The notes below the pieces were generated by a model. That model saw nothing but the letters and a program-made list of their open reading frames with translations, made no database searches and was not told the origin of the DNA. From a virus: a stretch of DNA of 64,000 nt. The stretch is from IMG/VR virus record IMGVR_UViG_3300020190_000049, positions 4,680 to 68,679 of that record; one strand, written 5' to 3'. Shown piece by piece: positions 3,485 to 52,666 of this stretch (the stretch's first letter is position 1; each line of letters starts with the position of its first letter). Made by a program: the position numbers and the translations under genes.

Positions 3485-4753
3485 TCATAGACCTTTCACC
3501 GCTTTGCGAACAACCTCCATCTCTGGAATAGTTTCGAATACATTCTCTTTTCTCAGATTATCTACTTGTGCAGATACTATTAGAAACTTTTTAGCGGCTT
3601 CTAGATTAAATGGCTGGCGTAGTTCGTGAAGTATCTGTGTAAAAATAGAATCTATGCTAGTATTGTATTTTTTATTGTACTCTACAATAAACGATTCTAT
3701 CTTTTCTATGGTAGACATTCTGTAATCGTCTGGTAAGATACTTACATGATAATGTTTAGGATGATCCAGTAAGTTGATAAAGAAGTTGTTATAGTTGACA
3801 TATCGATATATATTAGGATGCCTTCTAATAACACCCAAGTCTGTCAAATAAGTAATCATCTCGGGCAATCGGGCAACGTTCCATGCACCGATAGTCATGC
3901 CAGGTCGCATGATAATATTATCATATTTGGCAATTTCTTTGAGATTGTCTGCTACCTTACTCCATACTGTGCCGCTACGGATCAATTCAGCACGTTCGTC
4001 AATCTCGTCGATGCTAGGCCATACTTCTAATTTGCCCAGTTTCCATTGCTTCCAGTAGTCTAGTACATTCTTTTTTCCATATTCGAGAACTGAACAGTTT
4101 GTATTGTAGCTAAGTTTAACGTCGAAACGTTTATTTTCTACAAGTTTATCGAGTATATGCCAGTGCTCGTCCATCAACAACGGTTCACCACCAGCAAAAT
4201 AGATACGTTTAACGTTATCCATTTGATCTTCTAAGAAGTCGAAGTTTGTTTTATCCTCGACTCCTTCAATGTTCCATACCTTTTCTTGGTCAGTGTAACC
4301 TAGTTTCTTGGCATCGGGCACCCACGCACTGCTGTATCGTGGCCCGCAACTACGGCATTTGAAGTTACACAAGTTACTAAAACGAAAGTCCCAGTACTTC
4401 AAATCCATTTCAGTGCAAGTTCCGTCTTCTAATGTAATGCTAGGAATCTTTTCTAGCACATCAGGAAAGTCTCGATTGTGATAAAACCTGCCGCTGACGC
4501 CAGTAACATCTTCTTTGTTAAAACAAGTATCGCAGACCTTAGGACGCTTTCCTTCAATCATGTCTTTGCGTAACTTCTTCATGTTATCGCTATTCCAGAT
4601 TTCTTCGATGCTTTGCGTAGTTAAGTCACCTGCAAAATAGTTATGATGGCTAGTGAGGCAACACGGCACCACTTTGCCGTTTGGCTCAAAGTTTAAGTGC
4701 ATCCAAGGGACTGCACATAATGTTTCATTCTTTATAGGTATAATTTTGCTCAT
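3485..4753 (-). CDS. radical SAM protein with N-terminal SPASM/twitch-like Cys domain
   Basis: CxxxCxxC motif (NLCNFKCRSC), GGEP motif (FAGGEPLL), and N-terminal CAVPW...VVPCC...CDTC. Confidence 0.9.
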   Translation of the reverse strand: MSKIIPIKNETLCAVPWMHLNFEPNGKVVPCCLTSHHNYFAGDLTTQSIEEIWNSDNMKKLRKDMIEGKRPKVCDTCFNKEDVTGVSGRFYHNRDFPDVLEKIPSITLEDGTCTEMDLKYWDFRFSNLCNFKCRSCGPRYSSAWVPDAKKLGYTDQEKVWNIEGVEDKTNFDFLEDQMDNVKRIYFAGGEPLLMDEHWHILDKLVENKRFDVKLSYNTNCSVLEYGKKNVLDYWKQWKLGKLEVWPSIDEIDERAELIRSGTVWSKVADNLKEIAKYDNIIMRPGMTIGAWNVARLPEMITYLTDLGVIRRHPNIYRYVNYNNFFINLLDHPKHYHVSILPDDYRMSTIEKIESFIVEYNKKYNTSIDSIFTQILHELRQPFNLEAAKKFLIVSAQVDNLRKENVFETIPEMEVVRKAVKGL

Positions 4754-4813: not shown

Positions 4814-6181
4814 TTAAGGATGAATATTTTTTGTTCGTTGCTCATACAGGTCCTTAAGCCATTCAAAATCATTTATTTTAAATAACGCATCGTTGTTTCC
4901 GATATTATCATATCCGTACTCTCTTCCTGCTATAGCACCGTCAATAGAATATTTTCCAAACAATCTATCTCGACCGAGATTACACCATGCTTGCAATCTT
5001 AAATCTGTTTCCTCATCATATGTCTCATCCACAGGACGACTAGCCAGTTTTACACATTCGCGAAATGCAGATTTCCATGTAGAAAATTCGTCTGTATCAA
5101 ATCTAGTTTTGTTACTAACTAATTCTATCACTTTTAATCTATCGCTTATCGACATCGTCATATCTACAGTATTTGTATTCATTGAAAGAACTAAATCTCT
5201 GGGTAACAATTTTACTCCGCCATATCCATACACCAAATCATTTATAGGATTAATAGATTGCCAAATAAAAACGATATCTCTTTCGTATCTAGATACTTCA
5301 TAATCGAATTCAAAATCATCTACTATTTCAGCATCGCCATCTACTACATAAAACATGTTTGTTTCTACTATTCCAGCAGCGGCTTTGTGTGCATTATGTA
5401 TACCTTTTATACCATGCACTCTTTTTGCTCTAGGAAATCTCGATTTTAATTTTTCAAAATTTTCATCTGCATTAGGCTCATTATAACTGATAAAAACAAT
5501 ATCATAAGATTTTAATTTAGATGCAACGATTTCGTATTGTTTTTTTTCGATAGGAAATCTAAAATCAATTTCTTTTTTCGATAATTTTTTATTTTTAGGA
5601 ATGCAGGAGATTCCGTTGTAAGTTAATTCGTTCCTAAACTTATGTTGAAATACATGATTCATATTTCTATCATAGAAATTATGATGATTAAAATAAAGAT
5701 CAAAGTCAAAATCTAAAACCTCTACTTCTTTAGGTATCATCCAAAACATTTCCATTCTACTTTTGTCGCAAGCATCGATATAATCATCATACGTGTCTAT
5801 GATAAATTTTTCAAATTGTCGAGGACGAGATGCAACTATATCTATTTCTTTTTTATTTAAAAAGAGTCTATAAGAAAATTCTCTATTTGTAACATTATGT
5901 TCTTTAGAAAAAATACAAATTCCATCAAAAAAGTCTTTATTTTTAAATATGTGAACATAAGAACGATCCCAAATTTCTATCGTATAATCGAAAGAAAAAC
6001 CTTCTTCGACTATTAGGTCGTTCCAAACCACCCAGAAAAATTTAGTCAGAGATTTAGATTTTATTTTATCTAAAGAATCAACATTCTCAAGTTTCTGTGC
6101 TAGCGGAAATCGACTTTGAAATAGTTTCCAGTCGTTTTCGTTTATTTGATTTTTGCTGACATAGAAAAGATCATATTTCAT
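4814..6181 (-). CDS. glycosyltransferase-like protein (GT-A/DxD) with internally repeated domains
   Basis: YDIVFISYNE start, VVDGDAEI DxD motif and YGYGGVKL; paralogous to 6171-7061; two degenerate N-terminal repeats. Confidence 0.65.
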   Translation of the reverse strand: MKYDLFYVSKNQINENDWKLFQSRFPLAQKLENVDSLDKIKSKSLTKFFWVVWNDLIVEEGFSFDYTIEIWDRSYVHIFKNKDFFDGICIFSKEHNVTNREFSYRLFLNKKEIDIVASRPRQFEKFIIDTYDDYIDACDKSRMEMFWMIPKEVEVLDFDFDLYFNHHNFYDRNMNHVFQHKFRNELTYNGISCIPKNKKLSKKEIDFRFPIEKKQYEIVASKLKSYDIVFISYNEPNADENFEKLKSRFPRAKRVHGIKGIHNAHKAAAGIVETNMFYVVDGDAEIVDDFEFDYEVSRYERDIVFIWQSINPINDLVYGYGGVKLLPRDLVLSMNTNTVDMTMSISDRLKVIELVSNKTRFDTDEFSTWKSAFRECVKLASRPVDETYDEETDLRLQAWCNLGRDRLFGKYSIDGAIAGREYGYDNIGNNDALFKINDFEWLKDLYEQRTKNIHP

Positions 6182-46262: not shown

Positions 46263-48040
46263 CTATTAAAATAAAAAATCTCACAGTACGTAATTTCATG
46301 AGCGTGGGCAATCAAACCCAGGCTATCGACTTTGATCGTGGACAGCTAACTTTAGTCCTAGGTGAAAATCTAGATCTAGGAGGTGATGATTCCGGTGCTC
46401 GAAACGGTACGGGCAAGACAACAATCATAAATGGACTAAGTTATGCTATCTACGGCCAAGCCTTGACTAATATCAAACGCGACAATCTAGTTAACAAGAT
46501 CAACGGTAAAGGCATGTTGGTCACTGTAACTTTTGAAAAAGACGGTGCTGAATACCACATCGAAAGAGGTCGTAAACCTAACTTATTGAGATTTTCAATC
46601 AATGGTCAAGAACAGGATCTAAAAGATTTAGATGAAAGTCAAGGCGACAGTCGAGAAACACAAAAGGCCATAGAAGAAATATTTGGAATGAGTCCTGATA
46701 TGTTCAAGCATCTCGTAGCTCTAAACACTTATACAGAACCATTTTTAAGCATGAAGGCTGCAGATCAACGTGCTATTATCGAAGAATTATTAGGCATCAC
46801 ACTGTTAAGCGAAAAAGCAGATCACCTCAAAGAGCAGATTAAATTTAGCAAAGATGCTATCGCTACAGAAAACACCAAAATAGAAACTATCAAAATTTCC
46901 AACGATAAAATACAGCAGAGCATCCAAGCATTAGAGAGAAAACAAAAAATATGGAGCGAAAATAATGCTGCAGCGATCGGAGATCTCGAAACTAGCATAC
47001 GTCATCTAGAAAAGATCGATATCGAAGCAGAGATATCTGCCCACAAATGTTGGGACGACTACAACAAACGCAAGAATCGCAAGCAAGAAGCAGAACGATG
47101 GCTCGCCAGCATCATTGCGGACAACCAGAAACAAGAAAAACTTATAGAAAAACTTAAAAAAGAAATAGAAAGCCTCGAGGCTCATAAATGTTATGCCTGC
47201 GGTCAAGATGTGCATGATAACAAACAAGCAGAAATACTCAAGCAAAAAACAGATCAAATCAAAGAAGCGGCTCTGCAGATATTAGCCAACCAGACACAGG
47301 AACAAGAACATCAGGACACGCTGAAAGAAATCGGTGAGATAGAGAATTGTCCGGTAACACAATACGACACTATCGAGCAGGCCTACAATCATCGCAGCAC
47401 TGTGGAAGGATTACAGAAGGAGTTGACTGCCAAACAGGTCGAAACTAATCCTTATACCGATCAGATCGAAGAATTATCTAAAACGGCTTTGCAAGAAATC
47501 GACTGGGAAATGATCAATGAATTGACTAGAATCAAAGATCATCAAGAATTTTTATACAAATTGCTAACAAGCAAGGATAGTTTCGTACGTAAGCGTATTA
47601 TCGATCAGAATCTAGCATTTTTAAACCAACGACTAACATATTATCTCGATAAAATCGGCTTGCCGCACATCGTAGAATTTCAAAATGATCTGTCGGTGCT
47701 TATCACACAATTAGGCCAGGATCTAGATTTTGACAATTTATCTAGAGGTGAACGCAATAGATTGATACTTTCCATGTCATGGGCTTTCCGTGATGTATGG
47801 GAAAATCTCTATCACAGCATCAATCTACTTTTTATTGACGAACTAGTAGATTCGGGTATGGATGCCAGCGGGGTAGAATCTAGTATCGCTGTACTAAAAA
47901 AGATGACCCGCGAACGCGATAAGAATGTTTTCTTGATTTCTCATAGAGATGATCTAACCAGCCGTGTTAACCATGTCTTAAAGGTGATCAAAGAAAACGG
48001 TTTCACTTCGTACAGCACAGATATTGATATCATAGAATAA
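46259..48040 (+). CDS. gp46: recombination ATPase subunit (Rad50/SbcC-like)
   Basis: Walker A NGTGKT, zinc hook CYAC, signature LSRGE, Walker B FIDE, ISH. Confidence 0.93.
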   Translation: MTIKIKNLTVRNFMSVGNQTQAIDFDRGQLTLVLGENLDLGGDDSGARNGTGKTTIINGLSYAIYGQALTNIKRDNLVNKINGKGMLVTVTFEKDGAEYHIERGRKPNLLRFSINGQEQDLKDLDESQGDSRETQKAIEEIFGMSPDMFKHLVALNTYTEPFLSMKAADQRAIIEELLGITLLSEKADHLKEQIKFSKDAIATENTKIETIKISNDKIQQSIQALERKQKIWSENNAAAIGDLETSIRHLEKIDIEAEISAHKCWDDYNKRKNRKQEAERWLASIIADNQKQEKLIEKLKKEIESLEAHKCYACGQDVHDNKQAEILKQKTDQIKEAALQILANQTQEQEHQDTLKEIGEIENCPVTQYDTIEQAYNHRSTVEGLQKELTAKQVETNPYTDQIEELSKTALQEIDWEMINELTRIKDHQEFLYKLLTSKDSFVRKRIIDQNLAFLNQRLTYYLDKIGLPHIVEFQNDLSVLITQLGQDLDFDNLSRGERNRLILSMSWAFRDVWENLYHSINLLFIDELVDSGMDASGVESSIAVLKKMTRERDKNVFLISHRDDLTSRVNHVLKVIKENGFTSYSTDIDIIE

Positions 48041-48270
48041 TGTCTACAGACTCACACGATCAAATGATACAGGCGTTCCAAGAATATTTTAAATGGCAGG
48101 AGCGTTTTGAGTACAGAGGCAGCGACGAAGCAGGCATCAAGGCAAGATTTTGGTTGGCAGAAATACGCAGACAGGCGATGTTGAGGCGTAAAGAAATACA
48201 GGCAAAAAGAGAACAAAGAAAAACATCCAGAAAAGGCACGAGAGGCAAACCACTGAATATAACTAAATGA
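48040..48270 (+). CDS. small basic hypothetical protein
   Basis: 76 aa, coupled to the gp46 stop; Arg/Lys-rich helix. Confidence 0.7.
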   Translation: MSTDSHDQMIQAFQEYFKWQERFEYRGSDEAGIKARFWLAEIRRQAMLRRKEIQAKREQRKTSRKGTRGKPLNITK

Positions 48271-48705
48271 GTGCTGTGGACGTATCAAAACGAGTTCGTA
48301 GAAGAAATACCCGAAGGCTACATTGGCTTCGTGTATCTTATCACGAATCTACAGACCGGACAGAAATACATAGGCAAGAAACTAGCACAGTTTAAAAAAA
48401 CTCGACCACCACTCAAAGGCAAACGACTTAAAAGAAGATCTACAGTTGAAAGCGATTGGCGCGATTATTGGGGTTCTTCCGATAGGCTCAACGCAGATGT
48501 CCAAGCACTAGGTCCGGAAAACTTCACTAGAGAAATACTTTATCTTTGCAAATCCAAGGCAGAAATGTCATATCTAGAGGCAAGAGAGCAGTTTGAACGC
48601 AGGGTTTTAGAGTCTGATGACTATTATAATGGCATTATAAACGTCAGAGTTGGCGGCTCAAACACGCTTAGGCAGCGTCTACAAGAACAATCTAAGGCAA
48701 AATAA
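48271..48705 (+). CDS. GIY-YIG endonuclease (Seg-like catalytic domain only)
   Basis: GFVYLITN...KYIGKK, YWGSS, FTREIL, conserved E (YLEAREQ) and YYN. Confidence 0.88.
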   Translation: MLWTYQNEFVEEIPEGYIGFVYLITNLQTGQKYIGKKLAQFKKTRPPLKGKRLKRRSTVESDWRDYWGSSDRLNADVQALGPENFTREILYLCKSKAEMSYLEAREQFERRVLESDDYYNGIINVRVGGSNTLRQRLQEQSKAK

Positions 48706-48711
48706 CGCGGT

Positions 48712-49065
48712 ATTTTGGCTAGCGCAGGCTAATTTCTTGCGCCCATGATAAGGGGAACATGATTCGCCCGGACGGAAATCCTTGCCGCAGAGGTACTCAA
48801 CCACTATCCTTGACAGGACGTTAATGGCAAAGACCTTGCTGTATGGTTGTTTGGAGAGCGAAATAGGCAAAATGAGGGGAGAAAAACCCCACGTCTACAG
48901 GTATGATAGCAGATATTTGTAGGCCGCCGTTGTGATAAGACGGAGCTCGAGGTACCGGACAACCGCCTCTGTAATGCTCTACTGCTGTGTGACCGTATGC
49001 GACTCGGATAATGCTTCTTAGCCCTAGGTTGGGCTAAGTGTGACTGGACGATCTGGATAATACTA
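48712..49065 (+). ncRNA. candidate large structured non-coding RNA of unknown class
   Basis: No plausible ORF, GC-richer than its flanks, at least eight stems with G-U pairs on the + strand and a 7-bp loop pseudoknot; boundaries approximate. Confidence 0.6.
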
Positions 49066-49067
49066 AC

Positions 49068-49174
49068 TTTGCGCTTCGCGCAAAAAAATTATTACGTCTA
49101 ATATCGAAATAATTAAAAGAAAAGAAAGTGCGTTGAGCGCGAGCGAAAACGCAAACGAGCGTATGCTCGTTTTT
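49068..49174. other. cluster of GC-rich inverted repeats flanking an AT-rich spacer
   Basis: TTTGCGC-TTC-GCGCAAA (49068-49084), TGCGTT...AACGCA (49129-49153), AAACGAGC-GTAT-GCTCGTTT (49153-49172) followed by Ts. Confidence 0.6.
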
Positions 49175-49177
49175 ACA

Positions 49178-49184
49178 ATAAATA
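49178..49184 (+). promoter_or_regulatory. putative late promoter (ATAAATA)
   Basis: Lies 25 nt upstream of ATG 49209. Confidence 0.6.
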
Positions 49185-49208
49185 AACTATATTCTTTGGA
49201 TTCGTCAC

Positions 49209-51332
49209 ATGAGATTAATGCATCTAGAGCCTCAACTAAAACGAAATTATCTATACGAAGGTCTAGGTGATTCTGACAGAACTTCGGCGATGTTATGGGA
49301 AACCGCAGGTCACGAACTGCGAGAAGCAGCACTGACCGCTGATCAAATACAGAATCTGTTCAAAGAGATCGAAGCCGGAGCCACTGCCGCTGGCGACAAT
49401 AGAACTATGCTAGGCAAAGGCAAAGACGCTGTGTCGGCGGTCAACAAGGCCTGGGAAGATCTCAAAACAAAGATGCAGGATTCGGGTCCTGTCAAAGGGT
49501 TCGATCAGAAAGTCAGCGATGCGCTCAGCAAGATAGGCATGGGAGCCGCTGAACCAGAATTCAATGGGCAGGTCAATAAATGGGTACAAAAATATCGTGA
49601 CTTTGCCAAAAAACACCCTATCGCGCAGGGCGCTATCTATGCTACATTGATCGCACTGGCAGGTATCACGGGTGCTGGCATAGGTGGTGCTGCGGCGCTG
49701 GGTCTGCTCAAGATGGCGGATCAACTCTTGCAAGGTAAACGCTTTTCGTCAGCGGCCTATTCAGGTGTCAAGGCAGGCGCCCTGGCATTTGCTGCTTCTA
49801 AGTTAGGAGATCTGATTAAAGGAGCCAAACCAGGAGAACAGATCCCAGTCAGTCCTGAAGATTCTGCAGCGTGGCAAGCGGTCAAACGTGATTTTGAAAA
49901 TTATGATTATTACCTGCATCCCTCAAACGACAGTGTAATTGCCGTGCCTAAAGGCATGGGCAATCCGTTTGATCCATCCACGGCTGCTGGAGCCGCTAGA
50001 GATCAACTTACAAATATGTCTGCCGGAGCACTGAGAGATCAAGCAAGATCTATCGCAGATCGAGCTGTAGAAGATGCATTGAAATCGGGAGTAACTAGAC
50101 CTAACGAACTAGCAGACGCTGCGGCCATGGCCATGGAAAAAGCAGGTGTAGGCACTAATGTAGGTGGTAAACTGTCTGTGCAGACTGTAGAACGTATCGC
50201 CGATCAGGCCGCTGATGCTGCTAGGTCAGTGTCCAGCGGTGCTGCCAAAGGTGCTGCTCAAAGCGCAGGAACATCTGCCGCTGACATGGCAGCATCGATT
50301 TCAGATGTTCCTGCCGGTGGTGGCATTAAAGCGCCGGATTTTGATGCGGGAGATGCTGTGTCCAAAGCCGCAGATGCTTCATCCTCGATGCCCAAAGGCG
50401 CTACATTTAGTCCCGATTATCTGCAGGGAGTAGTAGACGGAGAAATATCTAGACCAAAGATATCTGCAAGTGATGCTCAAGCCGCTCTAGATTGGCAGGC
50501 TCAGAATGGCGGGCAGAGCAAGATCAATCTAGGCGCCACTGATCCAGTACCACCTGAAGAAGCAGGCAAAACGAGACCGTTCGCTAACAAAACACGCATG
50601 CCTGCATCTGATGTGCAGACTACCACAGCACCCGATGGTACTACCACTACCACAGGTACTCTCAAAGGTGTGACCAGCGATCAGATCCAGAGCCACCCAG
50701 CATACAAAGCAGAAATTGAACGATGGGGAGACAACCCAGAAAGCAGGCGAGCCGCGGCAATGAAAGCTCGTGCAGCCTTGCTCAAGGGAGAAATTGGCGC
50801 CGGAGACACAGTACCTCCAGATCAGGCTGCAGAACAACCTCTGCGATTGAGACCACGCATCAAGCGTCCCGCAGAAAGCCGGACCTATCCTGGACGCAAA
50901 CTCAGCGAAGGTCAAGTCTACATGGTCATCAATCGTGTCTGTGCGAAAAATCAACAGATGCTGGCAGAAGGACTGATCTTCGAAGGACCTTGGGACGCTA
51001 TCAAGGGCGCGGCCAGCAAAGGCATGGACTGGGTCAAGACCAAAGGCAAGAATCTCACTACCAAAGTAACCGCAGACAAACTAACATCGGCCTGGAAGAG
51101 TGCAGGCAGTCCCATGGACAGCAATGCTATAGCAGACCTACTCAAAGCACAAGGTGTCGCCGACACAGTGATATCATCTGTGTACTCACAATTAAAATTA
51201 CCAGCACCTGGTGCTGCCGATCATGCAGGTACTGTAGACATAGAAACCGTTAAACAGATGATCGCTAAATTGCCTACGGATCGTAAGGTAAGATTAATTA
51301 ATTACATGACCAAACAACTCAAGGTAGCCTAA
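49209..51332 (+). CDS. putative internal head/ejection protein
   Basis: 707 aa Ala-rich protein with a hydrophobic segment GAIYATLIALAGITGAGIGGAAALGLL and several (L/I)xE-G sites; late promoter upstream. Confidence 0.5.
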   Translation: MRLMHLEPQLKRNYLYEGLGDSDRTSAMLWETAGHELREAALTADQIQNLFKEIEAGATAAGDNRTMLGKGKDAVSAVNKAWEDLKTKMQDSGPVKGFDQKVSDALSKIGMGAAEPEFNGQVNKWVQKYRDFAKKHPIAQGAIYATLIALAGITGAGIGGAAALGLLKMADQLLQGKRFSSAAYSGVKAGALAFAASKLGDLIKGAKPGEQIPVSPEDSAAWQAVKRDFENYDYYLHPSNDSVIAVPKGMGNPFDPSTAAGAARDQLTNMSAGALRDQARSIADRAVEDALKSGVTRPNELADAAAMAMEKAGVGTNVGGKLSVQTVERIADQAADAARSVSSGAAKGAAQSAGTSAADMAASISDVPAGGGIKAPDFDAGDAVSKAADASSSMPKGATFSPDYLQGVVDGEISRPKISASDAQAALDWQAQNGGQSKINLGATDPVPPEEAGKTRPFANKTRMPASDVQTTTAPDGTTTTTGTLKGVTSDQIQSHPAYKAEIERWGDNPESRRAAAMKARAALLKGEIGAGDTVPPDQAAEQPLRLRPRIKRPAESRTYPGRKLSEGQVYMVINRVCAKNQQMLAEGLIFEGPWDAIKGAASKGMDWVKTKGKNLTTKVTADKLTSAWKSAGSPMDSNAIADLLKAQGVADTVISSVYSQLKLPAPGAADHAGTVDIETVKQMIAKLPTDRKVRLINYMTKQLKVA

Positions 51333-52666
51333 TGAAGATCAACGAGATATTGATAGAATCACAACTGCAGGAAGGACCTCTCCTAAACAAACTAGGATCA
51401 GCCATCGGTAAAGGTGTTGGCACATTGGCCAAAGGTGTTGGTGCAGTAGCAGGCGGCATCGCAGGTATAGGATCTGCTGTTAAAAAAGGTTATCAGGCCG
51501 GTAAAGCGCAGGTAGGTGCTGCAGGAGACGACGCACCATCGCCTGCAGCAGGGCCTGGGACGACTGCTACTGGAAGTGCTCCAGCGGCGAAACCTGCTGC
51601 AGGTTCTACAGCAGGAGCAGCCAAACCTGGAACACAGACATTAGCCAATCCCAAAGATCCTAACACGGGTACTACCCCTGCTGCTGCCGCAGGCCAAGAT
51701 GGAGCAGCAGGTGCAGCAGGCAAACCAGGTGCCGCTGGTGCCGCAGGCCAAGATGGAGCAGCAGGTGCAGCAGGCAAACCAGGTGCCGCTGGTGCCGCAG
51801 GCCAAGATGGAGCAGCAGGTGCAGCAGGCCAAGATGGAGCAGCAGGTGCAGCAGGCCAAGATGGAGCAGCAGGTGCAGCAGGCAAACCAGGTACACCTAA
51901 AACCAAACCTCAACCTGTTGCGGCCGGACCTGCAGATTCTCAAGGAAGAATTGAACCTAAGATGGGATCCACAGCATCTGCTAACGACACACAGTATGCT
52001 CAAGCACAGAAAGCCATAGCCGCACTACAACCAGAAGATCAAAAACAGATTTTAGCGGCATTACAATCTGATCCAAAAGTAAAATCGTCTCTGTCTCAGC
52101 AGACTACTAAACAACCTGTCGCACAAACAGGAACTACCAAAGGTGCTCCAGGTAAACCTACTTTTACAGGAGTTCCTAAGAAAAATCCAACGCCTAAAGG
52201 AGAACCACCTTCAGCGACACCCGCAGCAGAACCCGCACTTACGAAAACTAAGGGTCGTAAAAAACCGGCAGCACCTAGTCAAGCAGAGATTGATGCTGAT
52301 CGTGAAAGACTTATAGGCCCAACCAGTGACAGTATTATCAGAAGAGGACGATCTATAGTCGAACATATTGATGAAGCAGGACTGATGGCCAAACTAGGAA
52401 CCAAAGTTGGACAGGCCGCACAGGCAGTGGGCAAGACCGCAGGCAAAGCAGTTGGCACGGTGCAGCAGGCTGTGCCTGATGCTGATCACGCCAAAGCACT
52501 GGTTAAAGCATTTAATACAGGTAATACCAGTGCTGATCCAAACAGTCGTCCGCCCATACAAGACAGCAGCGGTACAGTACCTAGACCGATCATAGACAAA
52601 ATAAATCAGCTTAATCTAGAACAACGTGCAGAACTGCACAAATTAATTACACAGAAGACCTTATGA
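51332..52666 (+). CDS. putative internal head protein with a collagen-like (Gly-X-Y)23 tract
   Basis: N-terminus MKINEILIESQLQEG; uninterrupted G-X-Y triplets. Confidence 0.6.
   Translation: MKINEILIESQLQEGPLLNKLGSAIGKGVGTLAKGVGAVAGGIAGIGSAVKKGYQAGKAQVGAAGDDAPSPAAGPGTTATGSAPAAKPAAGSTAGAAKPGTQTLANPKDPNTGTTPAAAAGQDGAAGAAGKPGAAGAAGQDGAAGAAGKPGAAGAAGQDGAAGAAGQDGAAGAAGQDGAAGAAGKPGTPKTKPQPVAAGPADSQGRIEPKMGSTASANDTQYAQAQKAIAALQPEDQKQILAALQSDPKVKSSLSQQTTKQPVAQTGTTKGAPGKPTFTGVPKKNPTPKGEPPSATPAAEPALTKTKGRKKPAAPSQAEIDADRERLIGPTSDSIIRRGRSIVEHIDEAGLMAKLGTKVGQAAQAVGKTAGKAVGTVQQAVPDADHAKALVKAFNTGNTSADPNSRPPIQDSSGTVPRPIIDKINQLNLEQRAELHKLITQKTL
51692..51898 (+). repeat. collagen-like repeat built from 27-bp units (GQDGAAGAA / GKPGAAGAA)
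   Basis: 23 consecutive Gly-X-Y triplets. Confidence 0.92.

Follow-up and report, generated by a model that had tools for sequence, protein, structure and literature searches.

A doubly pseudoknotted noncoding RNA with twin sequence words behind a GIY-YIG nuclease gene of a T4-like phage

The subject of this work is a noncoding gap behind a small GIY-YIG nuclease gene in an uncultured T4-like phage. The DNA analysed, here called the window, is a stretch of 64,000 nucleotides (nt), positions 4,680 to 68,679 of IMG/VR virus record IMGVR_UViG_3300020190_000049; it is part of a record of 68,679 bases with an estimated completeness of 20%. An annotation made from the letters of the window alone, the original prediction, had placed a candidate pseudoknotted RNA of about 360 nt in this gap. 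The comparative analysis reveals that the gap encodes one plus-strand noncoding RNA, which begins at 48717, 12 nt past the stop codon of the nuclease gene, and extends as far as 49152 or beyond, perhaps to 49176. The RNA is a full-length member of a class with three parts: a Polynucleobacter-1 domain, a doubly pseudoknotted core and a tail with two identical sequence words. As far as the literature search shows, this full architecture is not in print. All things considered, it is likely that the RNA is a plus-strand noncoding RNA carried on the nuclease message and not a guide; a scaffold that acts in trans is the tentative, leading proposal for its role.

The structure was assessed in relatives collected in two ways. 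The nuclease protein has 595 relatives in IMG/VR, of which the best 80 loci were kept; a second sample, which avoids the bias of a nuclease search, came from a scan of IMG/VR with a pattern derived from the invariant RNA core alone (at least 120 stretches). The 131 distinct RNA sequences from both samples were aligned with E-INS-i (alignment A1), and in loci L002-L058 the entire gap can be aligned, at 71-88% identity. Over the 131 sequences, a structure of 84 pairs is 89.7% paired, compared to 73.8% after shuffling. Its covariation score is 0.406 against 0.158 for shuffled alignments, a value reached by none of 500 shuffles, and the score falls to 0.055-0.082 when the partners are slid by 1-3 columns. 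Cells with G-U outnumber cells with A-C by 756 to 231, which favours a plus-strand RNA, as the original prediction had argued from its G-U pairs. The folding energy of the single sequence is no better than that of shuffled sequences on either strand (z -0.65 for the plus strand, -1.55 for the minus strand), and three early all-pairs covariation filters, swamped by G/U noise, were only partly useful. Judged by aligned sequences, a structured plus-strand RNA is real; the original prediction had named covariation as one way to check it, and the RNA came through.

Most of the stems that had been drawn by eye covary, namely the first stem (five of its seven pairs), CAACCA/UGGUUG, GGCA/UGCU, GGGG/CCCC, the 12-bp stem, the nested GAGC and GAGG stems and CUUAGCCC/GGGCUAAG. 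Helices 2, 7, 10 and 11 of the Polynucleobacter-1 domain are 92-99% paired with changes on both sides. Four proposals are unsupported: TTGCC/GGCAA, CCGT/ACGG, CGG/CCG and the outermost two pairs of the first stem together have a covariation of 0.066 against 0.072 for shuffled alignments, and an equal or higher score arises in 478 of 500 shuffles. The pseudoknot proposed between the loop of the 12-bp stem and a downstream segment (PK1) is borne out at every pair. A second pseudoknot (PK2), which had been missed, takes the place of the CCGT/ACGG stem. Its pairs differ among the relatives (UA 79/CG 52 at one pair, GC 81/AU 35/GU 14 at another and UA 103/GC 14/AU 5 at a third), and about nine complementary combinations of its arms can be counted by eye in alignment A2. 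The two pseudoknots frame a compact core in which 22 bases are identical in 130 sequences (Table 1).

The tail contains two direct repeats that flank a hairpin (P10), a feature of the original prediction that is real. Each repeat consists of GUGUGAC, a linker and a 13-nt word. In 130 sequences the twin words change together in such a way that they stay identical, and not complementary, to each other. At positions 49006/49055, GG occurs 70 times and AA 57 times, with 3 of 130 discordant; at 49007/49056, GG occurs 107 times, CC 9 and AA 5 (discordant combinations listed: UG 3, GA 2, AG 2); at 49001/49050, AA occurs 67 times, GG 25, UU 10 and CC 5 (discordant combinations listed: UA 15, GA 4). 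About four of the 13 word positions vary, and the word types differ between lineages, with GG, AG, GC or GA plus AUAAU in the family described here and ACAUGAA or ACGUGAA in a sister clade. The near-identical pair L048 and L057 differs in the words; these loci are only 90% alike overall, so the comparison does not narrow the differences down. Nowhere else in the RNA is there a column complementary to the covarying word positions, no additional copy of the GUGUGAC/word repeat is present in the window, and the complement of the words is not enriched in the window (13 matches compared to 11.2 expected). It follows that the partner keeping the words alike lies outside the RNA. In DNA near the loci of relatives, 30 copies of the complement were counted against about 20 expected, and no third copy of a word was found in the more distant loci of the cow-rumen-2 type described below. 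Three familiar arrangements of repeats were considered for the tail and rejected. In a CRISPR-like mini-array the "spacer" would be a conserved hairpin; for type III antitoxin repeats the hairpins differ and a toxin gene is absent; palindromic self-pairing of the second word holds for some variants only.

Part of the RNA is already catalogued. In a scan of the whole window with Rfam at curated cut-offs, the single match is Polynucleobacter-1 (RF01718) on the plus strand at the 5' end of the RNA. The match is not truncated, covers model positions 1-141 of 141 and scores 85.8 bits against a cut-off of 37 (E 8e-17). The whole model is thus matched by 48717-48852, and its helices covary alike. The original prediction, which did not recognise the RNA and called it undescribed, was therefore mistaken for this segment, and the Rfam scan that it had suggested as a check removes part of the novelty: the first 136 nt, the 5' third of the RNA, are not novel, and the middle resembles a second Rfam family (RF02947). 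The remainder 3' of 48852 matches nothing in Rfam at curated cut-offs. A permissive scan of 48500-49300 adds only noise, a cow-rumen-2 match at 48893-48987 (14.4 bits, E 9.7) and a small nucleolar RNA model. Seen from the other side, the Polynucleobacter-1 model corresponds to the first third of the RNA and has no counterpart of the knotted core, of the twin words or of the terminal hairpins. The two parts usually travel together. When 15 diverse relatives were picked by the 3' core and nothing else, 14 of them had RF01718 on its 5' side, and L266, which belongs to the same family as the window RNA, scores 113.7 bits. L174 lacks a match to RF01718, and only about 130 nt separate the end of its nuclease gene from the core, indicating that the two RNA domains are separable in nature. 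In the table of Weinberg et al. 2010 (PMC2864571), Polynucleobacter-1 is entered as a probable RNA with "cis-reg: y" (probably cis-regulatory), from Burkholderiales and from fresh water or estuary, and the entry states no function. Membership of this orphan family gives no mechanism. No published account of the full-length RNA was found, although the supplements of PMC2864571 and PMC10690425 may contain one.

The RNA is also longer than had been proposed. An end at 49065 is too early, because a covarying hairpin (P12) lies at 49130-49152. At least four of five stem pairs form in 76 of the 84 tails that carry its loop motif, compared to 7 of 84 when the arms are slid by 2, and the stem occurs in 34 variants. 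The length is accordingly about 440-460 nt. Two possible extra tertiary pairs were observed in the Polynucleobacter-1 domain (48717-48730 and 48736/48784): 48718-48729 is GC in 59 and AU in 5 sequences, and 48736-48784 is CG in 107, UG in 8, UA in 3, AU in 1 and otherwise in 11. The original prediction did not recognise the RNA as a transfer RNA (tRNA), a transfer-messenger RNA (tmRNA) or a group I intron; this is upheld, as none was found. A group I intron with its homing endonuclease was considered and rejected, since no intron family appears at the gathering cut-off or at E <= 10 and the flanking open reading frames (ORFs) are complete.

Table 1. Features of the RNA and the adjoining genes (positions in the window)
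Feature	Positions	Strand	Remarks
SegE-type GIY-YIG nuclease gene	48271-48705	+	144 aa, GTG start, ORF call
Whole noncoding RNA	48717-49176	+	3' end uncertain: at least 49152, perhaps 49176
5' domain, Polynucleobacter-1 (RF01718)	48717-48852	+	85.8 bits, full model
P1	48722-48726/48738-48742	+	5 of the 7 pairs originally predicted; 98.7% paired
CAACCA/UGGUUG	48798-48802/48845-48849	+	long-range stem; 93.7% paired
GGCA/UGCU hairpin		+	supported by covariation
P6 hairpin, GGGG/CCCC	48876-48890	+	4/4 pairs changed on both sides; 73.9% paired, alignment gap-rich and noisy there
P7	48893-48924	+	12-bp stem, 8-nt loop with UAGC; 12/12 pairs changed on both sides; 90-94% paired
PK1 pseudoknot	48906-48912 (P7 loop)/48982-48988	+	7/7 pairs changed on both sides; 94.7% paired
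Invariant core	48926-48971	+	22 bases identical in 130 sequences: GCCG, A.GAC, GGUA, GG, ACCGCC, G
PK2 pseudoknot	48929-48933/48959-48963 (inside P9 loop)	+	98% paired; new
P8	48943-48946/48976-48979	+	encloses P9; 4/4 pairs changed on both sides; 94.3% paired
P9	48948-48952/48966-48971	+	92.8% paired
GAGC/GCUC and GAGG/CCUC nested stems		+	supported by covariation
CUUAGCCC/GGGCUAAG stem		+	supported by covariation
Repeat 1	48987-49012	+	GUGUGAC, linker, 13-nt word at 49000-49012
P10 hairpin between repeats	49017-49038	+	6/8 pairs changed on both sides; 88.2% paired
Repeat 2	49038-49061	+	GUGUGAC, linker, 13-nt word at 49049-49061
P11 hairpin, UUC loop	49068-49084	+	inner 5 pairs changed on both sides, 79.6% paired; outer 2 poor, 39%
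P12 hairpin, loop GAGCG-N-AGCGAA	49130-49152	+	motif in 84/132 distinct tails
P13 terminator-like hairpin and short U run	49153-49174	+	by eye, hairpin at 49153-49172; not flagged by terminator scan
707-aa ORF	from 49209	+	first gene past the gap; termed late gene

The middle of the RNA appears to be related to cow-rumen-2 (RF02947), a family listed in the Rfam 15 paper (PMC11701678). The window RNA is not a member, scoring 14.4 bits against a cut-off of 66 (E 9.7). Apparent common features are a hairpin with a UAGC-type loop, GCCGCC, a stem enclosing a GG..UAC-N-GGA-YR-ACC..CC loop, and GUAA. The partner of the hairpin loop seems to lie inside the big stem in cow-rumen-2 (by eye), whereas it lies elsewhere in the window RNA. 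An 18-base consensus pattern fetched 104 stretches, about 65 of them of the cow-rumen-2 type and three from the family of the window RNA; 31 of the 98 loci classified are chance occurrences in GC-rich coding DNA. All 14 cow-rumen-2-type loci tested pass RF02947. A covariance model of the core of the window family alone (R1; 130 sequences, 89 positions, with rough E-values) matches, over its whole length and at E <= 1, 41 of the approximately 65 loci of the cow-rumen-2 type, including 26 at E < 0.01, and none of the approximately 31 chance loci with the same 18-base pattern. The loci share part of R1 by the way they were selected, so this is moderate evidence for kinship.

The catalogued cow-rumen-2 motif in turn covers only the central part of a larger RNA, about 400 nt long, from rumen and gut (L203-L306, e.g., L203:11900-12340). 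The cow-rumen-2-type RNAs differ from the window RNA in their neighbouring genes and in a promoter-like pair of hexamers that belongs to the RNA itself (TTTACA-17-TATAAT-like, by eye) and lies about 190 nt before the core. Of ten neighbouring proteins that were scanned, one matches a T4 baseplate protein, one a phosphoesterase or nucleoside 2-deoxyribosyltransferase-like protein and one a family without an assigned function; the others are unmatched, and no match is to a nuclease family. The tails again carry twin words around a hairpin, for example ACAGAU, ACGGAAUAU, GCAGGU and CCAAAAG, and copies on one contig differ in their words (L220 vs L226, L225 vs L257). All members of the RNA family that were collected are virus contigs. 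RF01718 was found in none of three bacterial genomes and then in none of 151 sampled genomes of one Burkholderiaceae-family group. The core pattern occurs in at least 120 stretches of bacterial genomes, mostly GC-rich, with four weak R1 matches (18.8-20.6 bits).

Linkage of the RNA to the nuclease gene was counted in 125 distinct loci with the core and at least 900 nt of upstream sequence. A GIY-YIG homologue with 47-92% protein identity lies directly upstream in 120 of them, with a median distance of 236 nt from its end to the core, and the adjacency that the original prediction wished to see in relatives is thus kept. Two of the remaining five loci have an extra gene in between (L099, L108) and three lack GIY-YIG (L113, L150, L134). 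A PD-(D/E)XK nuclease (PF24608) replaces GIY-YIG at the same spot and distance in L113 (3963-4484, E 2.5e-29) and L150 (8819-9385, E 5.6e-30), and L134 has no nuclease and a different context with an amidoligase-like gene. Gene order is syntenic throughout, with gp47, gp46, optional small genes, the nuclease, the RNA and then variable genes, so the linkage may be inherited gene order. The sister clade of the nuclease (L059-L075, 74-78% identity) has a gap of about 500 nt with a diverged RNA, in which the twin words again surround a hairpin; this stretch opens with a conserved GGUUGGCGGGCCAG (e.g., L063:3451-4000) and gives no match to R1. Two RNA-bearing contigs were also seen to carry other structured RNAs: L134 a permuted or alpha-type tmRNA plus a tRNA (3911-4304 and 5169-5240), and the virus contig L247 a standard tmRNA (4366-4722).

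Expression of the RNA was approached through a promoter scan and through contigs of RNA libraries from relatives of 85-95% likeness. No sigma-70-like promoter was found on the plus strand at 47900-49400, which suggests co-transcription with the nuclease gene. One RNA-library contig of 599 nt joins the nuclease gene (48406-48599) to the RNA (48718-48744 and 48924-48993); it is compatible with co-transcription and proves no more. In four RNA runs, no contig covers 48766-48897 or 48997 onward at 85% likeness, which is uninformative.

Based on these results, the RNA would be transcribed as the 3' end of a gp47-gp46-orf76-GIY-YIG message, and the transcript would stop ahead of the late gene at 49209, where the terminator-like hairpin lies. 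Tentatively, the RNA may fold alone and act in trans as a stable scaffold with its words read by an outside partner. The knotted core would hold the shape or bind a partner, and the two identical words would be read by one sequence-specific partner from outside, which might be a protein, of the phage or of its host, or a further nucleic acid. In this proposal, one outside partner reads both words and the copies must therefore change together. Several points weigh against it. The outside reader of the words remains putative, and gene conversion may be what maintains the identity of the words, or they may act at the level of DNA. The close and conserved neighbourhood of a nuclease gene (GIY-YIG in 120 of 125 loci, PD-(D/E)XK in two of the other five) permits a functional tie. 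The RNA-library contigs may stem from DNA. Finally, the cow-rumen-2 loci were picked with a pattern that lies inside R1, the window itself reaches 14.4 bits with RF02947, and the R1 E-values are rough.

Among the alternatives, the one that survives best is a cis-acting element, a 3' untranslated region that stabilises, terminates or anti-terminates the early recombination and nuclease transcript or regulates the variable late genes. Its position 12 nt past a stop codon without a promoter of its own fits such a role, as does the "cis-reg: y" entry for Polynucleobacter-1 in the table of PMC2864571. The first plus-strand ORF after the RNA (in the window within 49209-52666) begins with M-K/R-I/L/V-x-E/D/Q-I/L in 63 of 120 distinct loci, consistent with regulation of a downstream gene. 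However, about 450 nt with two pseudoknots and 22 invariant bases exceed the need of a stabiliser or terminator, and a terminator-like hairpin and an A/T-rich late-promoter-like stretch (by eye) precede the next gene. Moreover, the downstream genes vary or sit on the opposite strand in many loci, and the cow-rumen-2-type relatives look like separate transcription units. Regulation in cis is unlikely.

The behaviour of the words could also reflect an arms race, in which the RNA is a decoy or anti-defence RNA that mimics a host or defence site and titrates a protein. The words do change in step and differ between lineages, and copies with different words on one contig (L220 vs L226, L225 vs L257) would suit such a decoy. 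Mimicry of a short site does not account for the large invariant core, however, and no target is known, making this a quite unlikely role.

The original prediction had suggested that the RNA possibly forms a ribonucleoprotein with, or guides, the GIY-YIG protein. In such a system the RNA would provide the DNA binding or the targeting that the nuclease, a catalytic domain only, lacks, and the twin words would be its address. Adjacency favours such a partnership: the GIY-YIG gene is directly upstream in nearly every locus counted, a PD-(D/E)XK gene occupies the same place in L113 and L150, and the sister-clade nuclease gene is likewise trailed by a diverged twin-word RNA. The nuclease of the window also lacks a DNA-binding domain of its own. 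Against this, the cow-rumen-2-type relatives have their own promoter-like hexamers (by eye) and none of their ten scanned neighbours matches a nuclease family. The GIY-YIG nuclease family of the window (phrog_447) occurs in 534 phage records, mostly cyanophages. In the three Kyanoviridae records that were opened, the nuclease gene follows nrd (ribonucleotide reductase) genes and has little or no gap behind it (0-148 nt), with zero R1 matches; the place next to nrd genes is no more than a parallel to T4 EndoII. L099 and L108 have an intervening gene and L134 has no nuclease. No variable guide-like segment, for which the original prediction had recommended a search, was found at the ends of the RNA. 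The words vary at only about four of their 13 positions, and their complement is not enriched above expectation (13 vs 11.2 in the window). The similarity of the RNA follows that of the GIY-YIG protein weakly (Spearman 0.10 with the 5' and 0.21 with the 3' domain; the pairs are not independent, so this is weak evidence), and the 3' domain tracks gp46 better (0.35). The RNA does not look like a dedicated guide of the GIY-YIG nuclease, and any partnership between the two is very unlikely.

Guide RNAs that work with a compact RuvC/HNH nuclease are typified by the OMEGA systems (TnpB/IscB, including the HEARO RNA). The likeness is a large structured RNA adjoining a compact nuclease gene. Here the nuclease is GIY-YIG or PD-(D/E)XK and not RuvC/HNH, the RNA has no transposon ends that could be seen and no variable guide at its end, and Rfam gives no HEARO or IS605-orfB match in the window. 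An OMEGA-type system was rejected on the grounds that SegE_GIY-YIG is the sole Pfam match of the protein, that about four word positions vary and that their complement is enriched neither in the window nor in the loci. The boldest version, a knotted scaffold that recruits either a GIY-YIG or a PD-(D/E)XK nuclease with the twin words as address codes, is hardly probable. If it were true, the target would be a short repeated sequence in DNA or RNA, with each word base-pairing to one of its strands or copies, and giant phages with paralogous RNAs of different words would aim at several targets.

A self-processing ribozyme with a catalytic knotted core, in which the words are two cleavage or ligation sites around the hairpin, would explain a compact core with 22 invariant bases in a double pseudoknot and identical words flanking an excisable hairpin. 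Yet no Rfam ribozyme family matches even at E <= 10, and the RNA contigs, which cannot show ends, contain no joint or end at the words; catalysis is very improbable. Least of all is it to be expected that the locus works as DNA, with iteron- or promoter-cassette-like repeats and incidental stems: T4-type phages do have promoter/stem-loop cassettes, the words look by eye like -10 hexamers and GUGUGAC like a -35 element, and a correlation of only 0.19 (Spearman) between the 5' and 3' RNA domains makes the locus a mosaic, but compensatory changes keep 84 pairs with a G-U excess on one strand, the -35/-10-like spacing is 10-12 nt and not 16-18, no plus-strand promoter appears in the scan, and the repeat is absent elsewhere in the 64 kb.

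Two orphan Rfam motifs, short pieces catalogued in 2010 and later, appear to be parts of one class of large, doubly knotted RNAs, which T4-like phages from fresh water, sea and rumen carry. A precise molecular job is suggested both by the 22 invariant bases, which sit in a compact pseudoknot, and by the co-changing words, and the core, either word and the pseudoknots are defined experimental handles. In its lineage the RNA is welded to recombination and nuclease genes, and it may thus bear on phage DNA handling. GOLLD and ROOL are described, in one report (10.1101/2024.12.08.627333), as large ornate phage-associated RNAs of unknown function that are common in phages and metagenomes. The RNA described here is likewise large, intricately folded and phage-borne, but it is smaller than these and has no sequence or model match to them.

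Upstream of the nuclease gene are a gene for a gp47-like phosphoesterase and one for a gp46-like SMC/AAA ATPase. The gap behind the GIY-YIG stop codon, 503 nt (48706-49208) in which no credible ORF lies, had been called the largest noncoding gap of the window, and this agrees with the other apparent gaps that were inspected (900-2450), which are occupied by small same-strand ORFs. Among cultured phages, the nuclease gene has its closest relatives in Kyanoviridae, and a blastn match is confined to the nuclease coding part of four Melnitz records, with none in the RNA. The GIY-YIG protein matches PF19835 (SegE_GIY-YIG) over residues 3-123 with 126.9 bits against a cut-off of 25 (E 6.9e-37) and belongs to phrog_447 (E 1.9e-39). 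The original prediction rightly described a catalytic domain with a basic insert and nothing more: the insert is present, and PF19835 is the sole Pfam match, the domain scan giving no further domain and no C-terminal DNA-binding domain. The catalytic GIY/YIG, Arg, Glu and Asn columns are invariant across 30 nuclease sequences.

An AlphaFold model of the nuclease (pLDDT 85.8) matches nothing at E <= 0.001 in Foldseek; the best matches, which are weak, are to the I-TevI catalytic domain (1LN0/1MK0, E 0.28-0.53, probability 0.80-0.87). A T4 endonuclease II (DenA)-like identity was rejected, as a phmmer search of PDB chains gave zero matches at E <= 10, EndoII included, and EndoII is absent among the Foldseek matches listed. 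The PF19835 match and the weak fold match make the protein resemble the Seg-type GIY-YIG nucleases of T4 and the catalytic domain of I-TevI. Unlike the free-standing Seg-type homing endonucleases of T4, it lacks a C-terminal DNA-binding domain, and it is encoded by a conserved syntenic gene of the lineage and not by a sporadic insert. The phrog_447 family is labelled "NAD synthetase" in many public cyanophage records, which looks like a propagated misnomer.

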